NCBI GenBank assembly: GCA_964016885.1
Contig: OZ024743.1
Span: forward strand, 165,788,001 to 165,852,000
Length of the DNA stretch: 64,000 nt
Direction of reading: 5' to 3'
Source: Eledone cirrhosa
Lineage: Eukaryota
The position numbers and the translations under genes are program-made. A model generated the notes under the pieces. It was not told the DNA's origin, ran no database searches, and saw nothing but the letters and a program-made list of their open reading frames with translations. Shown here one piece after another: positions 46,372-64,000 of the stretch. Positions within the stretch are counted from its first letter, which is position 1, and the number at the start of each line of letters is the position of its first letter.

Positions 46372-47640
46372 TATATTTGGAAAAACATATGATTTTTATA
46401 TATAGGTTTTTATATATATATGTGGAATAACCTATGGTTTAGGCTTTAAATATATTCTTAAGATAAATTTTTTTTTTTAATTTTTAACTTTATAGCTAGT
46501 AAATTTATGACTTCGTATAAAATAACATAATATGGTTCATGTTTTAATTATATTCTTAAGATAAAAAATGTTTAACTTTTTAACTTTATAACATTTAATC
46601 CTTGGAGTCATCTGAGATCTTAAAAAATCACTTATAACTTCCTTTACACTTCCTTACTGTTTTTATAATATAATTAAGTGGTTATTCGTTTGTAAACTCT
46701 CGCAAATTTTTCATAAATTTAGAATTATTTGGATGTTTAAATTTTGACTTACAACTTTTAATAAAATAAACTATATTAGATTTTCTCTAATGTAAAATAC
46801 TATATATTTATAATCCTTAACATACACATTTAAACTAATTATTAATATTAAATTATTAATTTAAATCTTTAATATTAAGGCAAATTTTAATCTTTAATTT
46901 TGATTTCTAATTTTTAATTTTAATCTAATTTTTCAACCTATCATTATAAGTATTATAATCAAAACGTAATGAACCCTGCATTATAAATATTCTTCTTCCA
47001 CGTTAATCTTATTTCTTCTTTCACTTAGATATACTTACGCTGTATATATTTATCTTTTGAAACTTATTTATTCATGCACTCTATCTTCACTATCAATATG
47101 TATAATCGTTCTTTCTTTCCTCTTCTCCTTTTTTTTTCGTTTTTCTTTTTTTCTCTCTCCCTTACATATCATCTTCTTCCAACAGTTTAATTTAAATAAA
47201 CCGTTATCTTTTCAACCTTTCGGACACTCATTTGCATACTCACTCATAACTTTGTATTACCCTCAATAAATGTACTTTCTCCACTATCCAGGAAGCTCCA
47301 ACCGTTCAGGTTGTCTTTTTTCCGGGTATGTCAATATTTATTTATAAAACAAATCTGTATTTTATCTGATGAAAGCGCACCAGAATGGTTGCATTTTTTA
47401 AGGGTATGTCAATATTTATTTATAAAACTAACCTATATTATATTTTATCTGATGAAAGCGCACCATAGTTTGCTCTGGTGGCCCTTGAAATGTGTATAAT
47501 GATATAAATATGGTTTTATAAATATAGTTTCCATTTGTTAATATATTGTATATTTACTCCAATAATTTGTTGAGTGCTTTATATCAGTTATAAAAATATT
47601 TTGCTTGTTGTATCCCAACAAATTAAATATAACCTCTACA
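46372..47640 (+). mobile_element. PLE 3' UTR/terminal segment, inverted relative to 41113-41695
   Basis: 46375-46712 is the reverse complement of about 41362-41695; 47441-47636 is related to the reverse complement of 41131-41332. Confidence 0.75.
47441..47506 (+). ncRNA. Type I hammerhead, preceded by a half copy at about 47359-47392
   Basis: TATTTTAT-CTGATGA(47449)-AAGcGCACCA..TGGTGgCcCTT-GAAA(47487)-TGTGTATA-ATGATATA. Confidence 0.75.
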
Positions 47641-51735: not shown

Positions 51736-53704
<1,969 letters not shown>

Positions 53705-57488: not shown

Positions 57489-57893
57489 AGATCAAAAGAT
57501 GGTTAAAGGAGTTCCATGTATTTTATTATGCGCATTTCAAAAACAAACATCATCGTGCAATAATATTTGTGTTTTCATCAGATAAAACAGGAGAACATGA
57601 TATGAAGGCTAAAAAATACTTGTGGATAGTGCAGTTTTAAATCAACATAAAAACTGCACTATCCACAAGTGTTTTTTAGCCTTCATATCATGTTCTCCTG
57701 TTTTATCTGATGAAAACACAAATATTATTGCACGATGATGTTTGTTTTTGAAATGCGCATAATAAAATACATGGAACTCCTTTAACCATCTTTTGATCTT
57801 ATATTATGTATACTCCAGTCCTACAAACTGTAGAGTGCTTCTTATCCGATATCTGCATTGCTTTATTGTACTACAATAAAACTCACCTCCTAC

Positions 57894-58679: not shown

Positions 58680-61228
58680 AAGAAGAAAAATATTTTTTTT
58701 CCCATTATTTTTTGTCCGGGGTTAGAAAATGTTTAAAACAAATTATTTTACTTTCTGTGAAGTGTCAAAGCATTTATTTATTTATTAACAATTATCGGTT
58801 TCAGCATTTTATGCGTTTTCAAATTTTGTGAGTGGGAGAGAAAAAAAAAGGATTTGTTTGTACAAAATGTAGAACAGAAATTAAGGTGATGTTAAACATG
58901 TTAGAGGAAGTAATGGGGGTAATGGGAAAGAGGAAATAATATTATTTACAAGCATGGTTTTTTTAAGACAAGCAGTGCAAGCATTATTTTTAGGCGAGAT
59001 AGCTGGAAAACGTTCCTTCTTTGAGGAGGCAAGTGGCCGTCTGGGACTGGATGTGTTTTCCCTTTTTAGAGAATTAATATGCAGGGGGAGGTAATTCAGG
59101 GTGGGAGGATAGGGTAAGAGAAAGAGAGGGGATAATTCCTTTATTTAAGAAAAAGGAATAGGCAGTAACTCCTAAGAGAACACATAAATTTGAGATATGG
59201 GTAACGTAGAAATAGAAGTAAAATAGTCCCTTATGGGTGACTCTAGGGTTCACTGTTCATTCTACTTTTAGTTTAGTCCATTTAGAAGGGGTTGGAATTT
59301 GTTAATGAAGTACGTTTCCTTATTAGTGCGTTGGATGAAAGAAGCGTTGTCTATGAATTTGTAGATGGGGAAAATTCTAAAGTTTGGTAGTTGGTCAGGT
59401 GCACAGTTGGCGATATGTTCACTAAGAGCAATCTTTCTGTATTCCTGTATTTTGATTTGTGATCTATAGACGGTCATACGTTGTCGGAGGCTGTTTTTTG
59501 TCTGTCCTATGTAGTGCTCTCGACAACCTGAGCAGGTCAAAACATAGATTAGGATGCACATGTAAAGTTGTATTTAACTGTGAAATGTTGTCCTTGTTTA
59601 AAGTAGAATGTTGAACCTTCTATTAGACTTATGCATATACCACAGTTGGGCCTTCCACATTTTCTTTTTACTGTATGGTTCATTGTGAGGGTTGGCTGGA
59701 TTTTGGCTTGTGTGAGGATATTTTTTATGGATTTAGGTTGTCTTTTGCTCTTTATTATGTGTGTTTGGAGGATTTTATTCATTCTTGGGTATCTTTTAAG
59801 TAAAGGTATGTGCTGGAGGATGGTGTCGAATGCCTCGTTGTTGAGGGGGTTGTGTGTGGAGATGTATGGTAAAGTTTTCTGTTGCGGTTCATTCGTTGGT
59901 TTGGTGTGTCTAAGTTCCTGGATGTTGAGTTTTAGGGCACCTTGGAATCCATTGTTGATTAGGGAAGGTGGGTAATTTCTGCTGATAAGAGTGTTCTTTA
60001 ATTCTTCTAGTCGTGTGTAGCATGTGTATTTATCAGAAACTATTGTGCAGGTTATAAAGAATTGCCATTTTGTTATGGCGAGAGTGGCACGAGTTAAAGG
60101 GAAGATATTGTTTGGAGTCTGTGGGTTTATAGTATGTCTGTTTCTATTTTGTTGTTTGTTTTCTTGATGAGGATGTCAAGGAAAGGGAGTTGTTCATGGC
60201 TGTAATCCATTGTAAATTGAATGTTTGTGTTGAGTCCATTTAGAAGTGTTTTAAACTTAATAAGTCTTTCTATACTTTCATGCCAGAGGATGAAGCAATC
60301 GTCCAGATATCTCTTCCAGTTTTTTTTCTATGTGGAGGTAGAAGGGGTTACCGTATTTGTCTAGAACTTTTCGGTAGAGAATGGTTTCCAAATATCCCAT
60401 GACAAGGTTGGCGTATGAGGAGGCTACTTTCGTGTCCATGGCAGTCCAAAATTTCTGTCTGTAGTATTTGGCATCGAATTTGTAGTAGTTATTTTCCAAG
60501 ATGAATTTGAGGCCCTCCATCACAAATTCTTTAGAGATGCGGTGTGGAAGTTCATTAGGGTAATTTTCAAACCAGAATTGGATTACCTCTATACCTAAGT
60601 CGTGTGGGATATTGGAATAAAGATTGATTACATCAAAGGATACTAGTAGCGTATGTTCATTATTAAGTGTTATTTGGAGATTGTTGGGCATATCCAGGTC
60701 GTCCCTTATGTAGCTTTTAATGTGTTTCAGGAATGGTTTAGGCAGTATATCTAGGAAGCTGCTTAGGCGGTGGTACCTGTTATTATGGGTCTTAATTTGA
60801 GGTCATTAGGAGGGGGGAGGGGGCATTGATGAAAATGTCTGTGGCCTCGTTGCAGGCCCTGCCTATCTCTTCGCTTTTGTGTATCTTTGGGATACCGTAG
60901 AAAAGGCTGGGTCTGCTTTTGAAGTTAGTGATATAGTTGTACTCCTTGTCGGTAAGACCTTCTCTGTAAAGGGTTGTTAGAGATTTTTGGTTTCTCATTG
61001 TTTTCTGTTGGCTGTAGTGTTGAGCCTTTTCGTAGTATGTTTCGTTTTCTAGAGTTGGGAGTACTAGGGTTGTGTAGTATTCTGTCTTCATAAGGACTAC
61101 TGCACTCCCTTTATCCGCCTCTTTGATTGTTAGAGTTTTATCGTTCTTTAAACTGTTAAGACCATTCCATTATTTTTTGTTGAGGTTTGGTTTGTGTTTA
61201 TGCCTGTGTAGGTGATGGTATGGGTAAT
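58680..61228 (-). mobile_element. Penelope-like element (RT + GIY-YIG), degenerate
   Basis: IKEADKG, FYGIPKIHK, SFDVINLYSNIPH, AMDTKVASSYANL, RYLDD, CGRPNCGIC, LIYVLTCSGCREHYIGQT. Confidence 0.9.
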
Positions 61229-61282
61229 TAGTACACACATACACGTGTATAAATATATGTATGTATACACATATGTAAAAAT

Positions 61283-61319: not shown

Positions 61320-62029
61320 GTTTTAAGTCTGCGTGTCTGACATATATGCGTAGCTTGTGAATAAAAAATTCAAGTGGTGTCGCTGGCCGTGGTGATCGCC
61401 AAACATGTTTTGTAATGTATCGTCTTATTGGCTAATCAACCAACGAGAGTAATTGTTGCTCAAAAGCATCCGCCATTTTGTTTGCACGTCTATTTATCGT
61501 TTCGCTTTCGAATCTTCCTCCTGTATTTCGTCGTTTGTCATCAAAATATTTTTCTCGCTTTGGTAAGTTATATTGTTAATTTATATATGATTATTTAAAT
61601 TTATAGTAACTATTTTATTTTCAGTTCGTTATAACATGCTTATAATATTGGTTGTATCATATTTACTTGTATATTTGTCCATTTTATTGTTCGTTTCATG
61701 TTAGATTATTTTTTTTATTATTATGTTAGACTATTTGTATGTAATATTTGATGTTTATTAATTCAACTATAACAATTATTATGTAAAATATATTTATTTA
61801 ATATTGATTGTTTTTTGAAGTTGTTTATATATTTATTTAATATTGATTGTTTTTTGTAGTTGTTTATATTAAAAGTCTGAAAATATTTTTATACATCTTA
61901 CAATAATATTTATAAGATCATTTATAAAATAACAATCATATAATCTAATTACATTACAACGATAATTTATTATTAATATATATCGTGTTTAACTAGAGTT
62001 ATTACAAGCGTTGCCTTAAAAAAATATTA

Positions 62030-62307
62030 AACTAGACCTGAAAATGCGCAAGCTCAAAAGAGCCACAGAATGTTATAATAAACCTTCAAAAGTGTGGGAC
62101 TAGAGTTGTTGCTCAAAAATATTGTAATCATTATCTATCGTACATTCTGTGGCATCCTTTTATAAAAAATATCACAATAAATACATCTAGAGTGTACGAT
62201 AGATAATGATTACAATATGTTTTAGCAACAACTCTAGTCCCACACTTTTGAAGGTTTATTATAACATTCTGTGGCTCTTTTGAGCTTGCGCATTTTTCAG
62301 GTCTAGT
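62030..62307. repeat. MITE/foldback-like inverted repeat with ACTAG..CTAGT termini
   Basis: 62030-62144 is the reverse complement of about 62193-62307. Confidence 0.75.
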
Positions 62308-62602
62308 GTAAATATGTGTATACACACATGTATAAATACATATGTGTATTTACGCAGTTATTGGAAAAATCGTGTAAATTCATTTTTTAAATGTATAAGT
62401 GAGTAAGGTCCCTAAGACTATTAGTAATTTATTTTTTTTAAAAAAATGATAAACATCGAAAAAATCGATTAGTATATCGGAAAAAAATCGATTTAAATTC
62501 CACGAAATTAAGAGTGGGGTTTCAGACAATACTTTAATTATTACCAATGCATTCACGATTTCGTGTAATTGCCGGTCAACAAAAAACTTCCATTTTAAAT
62601 AG

Positions 62603-62664
<62 letters not shown>

Positions 62665-62674
<10 letters not shown>

Positions 62675-63835
62675 TAAAACATGTCTATAGAATCACAAGA
62701 TAAAATATATACTATTTCCTCTCCCAATTAGCATAATTAACTATATAAAAAATCGAATAGACCAGGCTATAAGAATGAGGCTTCTATGAAGAAATCTCCG
62801 ACAAATAACCAAAACTAGCCCTTCGCGTCGGCCGTAGCGGAATATGTATCGAATATTTCGACTCCTGTTTAGTTGACTATATCTGGGCGATTACGCTGTC
62901 GAAATATTCGATAAATATTCCGCTACGGCCGACGCGAAGGGCTAGTTTTGGTTATTTGTCGGAGATTTCTTCATAGAAGCCTCCTTCTTATAGCCTGGTC
63001 TATTCGATTTTTTATATAGTTAATTATGCTAATTGGGAGAGGAAATAGTATATATTTTATCTTGTGATTCTATAGACATGTTTTATGATATATAGCTCTG
63101 ATTGTTTAATTTATTAATTTTTCATTGAGCCACAAAGTGACAAGTTGCAAAACACGTATATGTATATATATGTATATATATATGTAAAATTTTATATGTA
63201 ATAATCTCCCATTAGGTTGAGATACAAATTTGGCTGTATTGTGCTGTGCTTTCTAGCAAAAATGCCACCAGTCGTAAGCAACTACCACACCCCCTTCGAA
63301 CCTGACCGCGACTACGTCACGATTTTTAGCCATTTTGAATTAATTCTTGGCGCGATCACTTTGGAAAATTTAGTGTCTAGATAAGAGCGAACTTCCTGAT
63401 GAATCCGACGCTCGAGTTTATATAATTATTACATAATTATTGGAAGACTCAAAATACGGATGAAACCATGGTAGAGGTATTTAAATGTATTCTATTTTCT
63501 CCTAGTTTATTTTACACCTAATTCTGTTTAGTTGACTGTAGCTGGGCGATTACGCTGTCGAAATATTCGATAAATATTCCGCTACGGCCGACGCGAAGGG
63601 CTAGTTTTGGTTATTTGTCGGAGATTTCTTCATAGAAGCCTCATTCTTATAGCCTGGTCTATTCGATTTTTTATATAGTTAATTATGCTAATTGGGAGAG
63701 GAAATAGTATATATTTTATCTTATGATTCTATAGACATGTTTTATGATATATAGCTCTGATTGTTTAATTTATTAATTTTTCATTGAGCCACAAAGTGAC
63801 CAGTTGCAAAACACGTATATGTATATATATGTAAA

Positions 63836-63840
<5 letters not shown>
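62665..63840 (+). mobile_element. Non-coding hammerhead element: inverted 5' end plus about 1.5 copies of a 659 bp unit, in (TA)n
   Basis: 62665-62862 is the inverse of about 62898-63094; 62865-63190 is repeated at 63524-63840. Confidence 0.8.
63391..63478 (+). ncRNA. Type I hammerhead with about 59 nt stem II domain
   Basis: ACTTC-CTGATGA(63396)-ATCCG..GAGT..ACTC..CGGAT-GAAA(63462)-palindromic ACCATGGT-A-GAGGT; predicted cut after 63473. Confidence 0.85.
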
Positions 63841-63933
<93 letters not shown>

Positions 63934-64000
63934 ATATTAAATAAATGGAAACTATATTTATAAAACCATATTTATTCTATTATATATATTTCAAGGGTAC

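Follow-up and report, generated by a model that had tools for sequence, protein, structure and literature searches.

The insertion near the end of the window, which here means the whole 64,000-nucleotide stretch of Eledone cirrhosa DNA that was analysed and in whose coordinates all positions are given, belongs to a family built on one fixed monomer of about 660 bases, non-coding and present in thousands of copies scattered through the genome. The family is probably a non-autonomous Penelope-like non-LTR retrozyme that carries a predicted hammerhead ribozyme and is likely to be copied by a Hydra-type Penelope reverse transcriptase with its GIY-YIG nuclease. It is best called a non-autonomous Penelope-like element, as is now argued for animal retrozymes.

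The insertion and its family

A sequence-only reading of the window had described an inverted arm of about 200 bp followed by 1.5 copies of a 659-bp unit, all flanked by (TA)n, and this layout was upheld, with the inverted arm measuring 197 nt (Table 1). In the repeat search this arm is 99% complementary to 62898-63094 and to 63557-63753, and the direct repeat (62865-63164 and 63524-63823) is 98% alike at a spacing of 659. The arm had been called a 5' foldback; the inversion is real, but it is actually another arm, in the opposite orientation, with a fixed 3' end of its own as its starting point. The unit has a GC content of 35% and, as had been claimed, no ORF, its longest stop-free frame being 59 codons, and the reverse transcriptase and GIY-YIG ORF by which an autonomous Penelope-like element would be recognised is absent from the unit.

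Table 1. Parts of the insertion and predicted signals within it, in window coordinates
Feature	Position	Strand	Basis or remark
Left flank, (TA)n target microsatellite	62608..62665	.	sequence reading
Inverted arm, monomer 368-564, 5'-truncated, ends at fixed site A	62666..62862	-	repeat search
5'-truncated upstream part-copy (monomer 335-659), the pseudo-LTR redundancy	62865..63189	+	repeat search
Full non-coding monomer, position 1 = 63190, ends at fixed site B	63190..63844	+	
Hairpin behind end B in the template, ATCTC-CC-ATTA-GG-TT-GAGAT	63204..63223	+	104/122 matched contexts exact
Cluster of 5' ends of copies (monomer 128-145), candidate transcription start	63317..63334	+	inferred
Type I hammerhead fold	63385..63478	+	motif anatomy and covariation; predicted
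Fixed 3' end A, TTTTATGA then TATATA	63740..63753; also 63081-63094 and in the inverted arm	+	
Hairpin behind end A, GCTC-inner stem-TT-GAGC	63754..63789; second copy 63095-63130	+	138/190 matched contexts exact; predicted enzyme-positioning signal
Right flank, (TA)n target microsatellite	63845..63928	.	sequence reading

A DNA search of the 3.0 Gb genome gave 3479 candidates, and the 40 that were scored are 94-100% identical. Exact-pattern searches, the totals of which are counts of motifs and not of insertions, matched an 18-mer from the ribozyme of the young subfamily 160 times, a 22-mer close to end A 2479 times and the hairpin-B pattern 1513 times, each reversed control giving 0. Loci were sampled from the first 100 listed of the 2479 and of the 1513, and among the matches listed they follow the window monomer colinearly, with identities of 66-100%. 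When copies were compared, the monomer proved to be fixed, with 65 full-length matches of 630-679 nt alongside the dispersed colinear copies and a cut-to-cut distance of 657 nt in one locus (L011). The proposal of a separate retrozyme-like family was thereby borne out, but its independence from other elements holds for sequence only; blastn gives no match of the unit to other elements of the window below E 0.12, in line with the first observation, yet a structural signal, the hairpin described below, is common to other elements.

Two fixed ends and their pairing

The arms of the insertions end almost always at one of two sites, A and B. With one local array collapsed, the count falls from 116 to 112 insertions (L081 and L082 being duplicates of each other), and of their 166 arms 90 finish at A, 63 finish at B and 13 have other ends. 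(TA)3 follows within 30 nt beyond the end in 86/89 A-ended and 60/63 B-ended arms, and target-site duplications are unreadable in (TA)n. Amongst 49 inverted insertions 40 combine A with B, 2 have A twice, 1 has B twice and 6 include another end. This full set was partly selected by a query spanning A and a pattern-defined subset of 31 was tallied separately, in which 24 are A+B and 2 are A+A (p 5e-6). The window copy fits the pairing, with its inverted arm ending at A and its direct arm at B.

In the available text of the Penelope literature the 'tail' is a piece found at one end only (PMC8557442; PMC3846280) that has been traced in vitro to two internal start sites (PMC11167929), and two direct and one inverted pseudo-LTR, with the tail on one, are the typical Penelope structure (PMC3846280). 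The A+B pairing in the inverted insertions of this family is the known footprint of that tail. The integration signature ascribed to the insertion at the outset was therefore recovered as a Penelope-type one, consisting of fixed 3' ends, variable 5' ends, a (TA)n target and a partial tandem with a 5'-truncated inverted arm.

Divergence is 2.3-2.5% between arms or units of one insertion and 4.9% between separate insertions, and subfamily-diagnostic comparisons agree in 1519 of 1581 cases within insertions, as against 61% between them. This agreement within insertions shows that both arms come from one template lineage.

The predicted ribozyme

The claim of one hammerhead per unit held up, as the motif scan finds a single type I fold, with its core CTGATGA at 63396 (63396-63402). 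Stem I (ACTTC/GAGGT) joins 63391-95 to 63474-78, stem II (ATCCG/CGGAT) joins 63403-07 to 63457-61 across a long insertion and is followed by GAAA at 63462-65, stem III is 2 bp with a palindromic CATG loop, and GAGCG at 63385-89 pairs with CGCTC at 63409-13 in a pseudoknot. The predicted cut falls between 63473 and 63474. An Rfam scan of the window at the gathering score gave 0 matches, and energy folding of a 131-nt piece gave a minimum-energy form other than the hammerhead (z 0.35). The fold was called from its motif anatomy and from covariation across 44 copies. These rows, the window copy and 43 of 57 non-redundant references, were picked for diversity; 88.8% of their 783 cells are paired and 9 of 18 pairs have two-sided changes, with 29-51% pairing in slid controls on the same alignment, and as the 44 copies are kin a shuffle count is not a probability here. 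Covariation is seen in stem I, in stem II and in the pseudoknot, in which the strand preceding stem I pairs with loop II.

A short stem III with a palindromic loop is a form described as requiring a dimer (PMC4209133), and in a 2026 preprint 8 of 9 retrozyme dimers tested did not cleave in vitro (10.64898/2026.07.22.740005). The base at the cut site is mostly A, C or T and occasionally G in the ribozymes of three loci (L199, L162 and L216). An exact 23-mer from the window matches the window copy alone because of a private change at 63408.

The template

It is apparent that the copies cross the cut site freely, with 139 of 238 segments spanning it with an intact junction, and they do not stop there, as the 3 of 166 arms that stop at monomer 283-290 are no enrichment; cut linear monomers are thus not the main template. 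The 5' ends instead gather at monomer 128-145, where 13 of 37 lie against 3.5 expected, in a cluster that was spotted post hoc. By hazard there are 9/102 ends at this cluster vs 4/121 at the cut site, and a sibling set places 4/20 in the cluster after a shared locus is dropped, which is weak. The cluster sits at the motif GCCATTTT, upstream of which lie what we take to be CCAAT- and CRE-like words. The cluster would mark run-off where transcription begins, and the positions of these 5' ends suggest that some templates at least were linear and uncut. Arms longer than 670 nt (65 of 166, the longest 2030 nt) need a multimer, a circle or template jumps, between which the data do not separate.

One of these routes has been taken further in the idea of a pure rolling-circle retrozyme, with every insertion copied from a 659-nt circle that was cut by the ribozyme and re-ligated. 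We regard this as possible at best for the family as a whole. The long arms and the intact junctions at the cut site would suit it, as would the diagnostic sites shared by tandem units inside one insertion, and circles have been shown for other animal retrozymes (PMC7229834). A circle, however, has no 5' end, yet the 5' ends cluster, and two exact ribozyme matches within a single arm are found in just 6 of the 71 pattern-defined insertions (one locus, L054, holds about three units, and the window copy carries one ribozyme). The circular fold of the monomer is also unremarkable, at -146 vs -137 +/- 7 kcal/mol, and the anole element was inserted in vitro without needing ribozyme cleavage (PMC11167929). 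There are no A-to-G editing scars in the copies, with A>G at 4.0 vs T>C at 4.5 per 1000, and C>T and G>A are balanced, each at about 16.5 per 1000.

A candidate hairpin signal and a candidate helper

A CTC-hairpin-YY-GAG motif stands behind both ends in the unit, and it does so too in an autonomous Hydra-type family. In the unit both hairpins are conserved across subfamilies, and two motif matches occur in 0.15% of 2000 shuffles of the monomer. Outside the family the motif matches 227 times in 2.79 million nt (both strands), 39 of these with a ribozyme core upstream. The autonomous family is young, with 63655 candidates genome-wide, and one locus (L317, G000:C7:78452000-78461999) is a tandem of a very young element with a 4011-bp unit and identical 737-aa ORFs. 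The family has RWR (RWK-like), DKT, CxCX5C, CxxC and CxH, a hammerhead and a (TA)n target, motifs by which it would belong to the Hydra clade, the diagnostic set being taken from PMC8557442, where almost every Hydra family is described as inserting in (TA)n. Copies of the young family end at either of two sites separated by about 90 nt, with NCTC-hairpin-YY-GAGN within about 10 nt of each, exactly like A and B, and end B with its hairpin resembles the Hydra-type B site in sequence. The helper of the unit is therefore probably a Hydra-type Penelope element.

The unit has no blastn sequence match to the young Hydra-type family in 31 loci, none to a family that we take to be Neptune-like in 30 loci, and none to a second Hydra-type family in 24 of 25 loci, the exception being a chimera (L049). 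Sequence similarity to the end of an autonomous partner was thus absent in all four sets tried, the window elements above included, and the hairpin motif alone is shared, which lowers the case that the unit derives from a named partner but not the case that it works like one.

In the chimera a B-ended arm is fused at monomer 333 to an element of the second Hydra-type family (that of L319). The junction, near L049:1779, is no more than 2 nt away from the predicted ribozyme cut of that element, and the element's own continuation was not seen directly behind the arm. The simplest reading is an enzyme jump onto a ribozyme-cut RNA end; the alternative is a deletion across the 4-nt microhomology at the junction, and the case is a single one. 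Copies of the second Hydra-type family likewise end at two sites, separated by 66 nt, and behind the first stands a hairpin with one bulge that was found by eye and that a two-bulge scan does not score.

It is conceivable, though we hold it only tentatively, that a retrozyme unrelated in sequence to its helper is recruited by structure alone, so that CTC-hairpin-Y(Y)-GAG would fix two starts of a Hydra-type reverse transcriptase, one per DNA strand, an uncut RNA from an internal promoter would be copied, and length would be regained through jumps onto ribozyme-cut ends, as in the L049 chimera. If this is true, the role of the ribozyme would be to provide acceptor ends, and copying could do without a circle.

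Movement by a Penelope clade other than Hydra, or by several clades, is an unlikely alternative to a Hydra-type helper, with observations that pull both ways. The hairpin motif is not exclusive to Hydra-type elements and in a few loci precedes non-Hydra ORFs, like those at window 28869 and 60278. A second chimera joins the unit to a non-Hydra family (52371-type; L058/L318) without a junction at a ribozyme cut, with unit positions 319-659 and 1-94 joined gapless at L318:5230-6929 to a 5'-truncated young Penelope-like element like that at window 51818-53081. Given this second case, chimera formation may be a general property of (TA)n runs that are crowded. The 52371-type family, however, has ends 43 nt apart with no such hairpin between them, and both the resemblance of end B to the Hydra-type B site and the (TA)n preference of Hydra families count against a non-Hydra helper.

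With a Hydra-type helper the sequence of events would probably be as follows. Transcription of the unit would start at a promoter of its own that lies about 150 nt 5' of the ribozyme, and the helper protein would bind the CTC-hairpin-YY-GAG motifs and nick both strands of a (TA)n run. Copying would begin internally, just 5' of each hairpin, from one DNA strand at A and from the other at B, and the two copies would then be joined head to head. In the window insertion the A copy would have stopped after 197 nt and the B copy would have run for about 980 nt through the ribozyme site, on a template RNA that was continuous across the cut site, which for some copies may be an uncut read-through RNA. 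For copies longer than one unit the template may have been an uncut multimer or a re-ligated circle.

Relation to autonomous elements

That an autonomous Penelope might be the source, with the unit as no more than its pseudo-LTR or 3' UTR and the copies as truncated remnants in partial tandem, had been raised as the alternative from the start and now appears very improbable. The insertion architecture is that of autonomous Penelope elements, and Xenopus retrozyme families match 22 transposons of which 21 are Penelope-like (2026 preprint). However, copies running upstream into reverse transcriptase or GIY-YIG coding sequence were looked for and the copies enter the same monomer instead; among the matches listed all 39 loci fetched by hairpin B do so, and none of them runs into an ORF. 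A same-strand ORF match within 600 nt upstream occurs in 3 of 257 family locus records (not de-duplicated), with no recurrent class and at differing positions in the arm, these being a nested insertion (L233), the L049 chimera and a match to a short C-terminal piece (L004). The first of them was considered as an autonomous partner and rejected, as the unit is nested inside an old ORF. Local tandem or palindromic duplication, or a microsatellite assembly artefact, can be ruled out, for whilst one array (L092-L093, G000:C1:303.20-303.21 Mb) does duplicate a whole inverted insertion and its flanks locally in five copies with periods of 1.8-2.6 kb, the same two ends recur in the 112 separate insertions on many contigs and the units of one insertion differ by the 2.3-2.5% given above.

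Comparison with known elements

The class to which the family belongs (non-LTR retrozyme, non-autonomous Penelope) is already known, and its insertion pattern is textbook Penelope. As they are described in two papers (Cervera and de la Pena 2020, PMC7229834; 10.64898/2026.07.22.740005), animal non-LTR retrozymes likewise have a non-coding unit with one type I hammerhead and low GC, occur as monomers to short tandems and have a proposed Penelope helper, and the 659 nt of the unit fall within the 51-972 bp retrozyme range of the 2026 preprint (Li, Clavereau and Pollet). Unlike them, the unit is mostly found as dispersed insertions of 1-1.5 units with inverted arms, and it has no sequence match to a helper pseudo-LTR. 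Fixed A and B ends, a shared hairpin and a cluster of start sites are not described in the parts of the animal retrozyme papers that were covered.

With the Hydra clade (Craig et al. 2021, PMC8557442), the rotifer Pen2a (PMC3846280) and the anole PAc (Frangieh et al. 2024, PMC11167929) the unit shares the partial tandem, the adjacent inverted 5'-truncated copy and the one-end tail. The (TA)n target, a predicted hammerhead in the repeat and probably also two internal start sites and an uncut RNA template are common to the unit and these endonuclease-bearing Penelope-like elements. It differs from them in having no ORF, in a tail of about 90-105 nt vs their 30-40, and in a ribozyme that lies about 280 nt upstream of end A and has a pseudoknot and a long stem II insertion. 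The non-autonomous Chlamys elements such as MRC1 (PMC8557442) are similarly non-coding and Penelope-like, with pseudo-LTRs and head-to-tail copies, but they generally match their helper at the 3' end, whereas the unit shares only a structural motif and has a hammerhead.

A literature search, of incomplete coverage and with supplements outside it, found neither the family nor the hairpin signal described in any paper. The value of the family is mechanistic, as the papers covered offer proposals rather than answers on the identity of the Penelope enzymes that mobilise animal retrozymes, on the RNA signal recognised by them and on the function of the ribozyme. The family brings together a minimal candidate signal, candidate helpers of intact appearance from the same genome and two exactly placed start sites, a combination that suits the in vitro assay published for the anole element (PMC11167929).

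Other elements in the window

Window 63929-64000 (-), in the same (TA)n run as the insertion, is the end of a Hydra-type relative that matches window 47482-47556 and terminates at the first end site of its family. A palindromic insertion of another repeat, with 108-nt arms, lies at window 62027-62311, and the same end is found beside two copies of the unit (L005 and L017) in (TA)n. In addition, the window contains nine or more other hammerhead-like motifs, at window 3055, 34065, 47449, 57707 and 48048 (+) and at 57581, 54088, 53839 and 41323 (-), most with an 8-bp AT-rich stem I. The window also holds what we take to be LINE-like ORFs and several Penelope-like ones. Ahead of one broken Penelope-like ORF (59549-61200), window 61200-61280 (-) has by eye an intron-like end, with look-alikes of a branch point and an acceptor.
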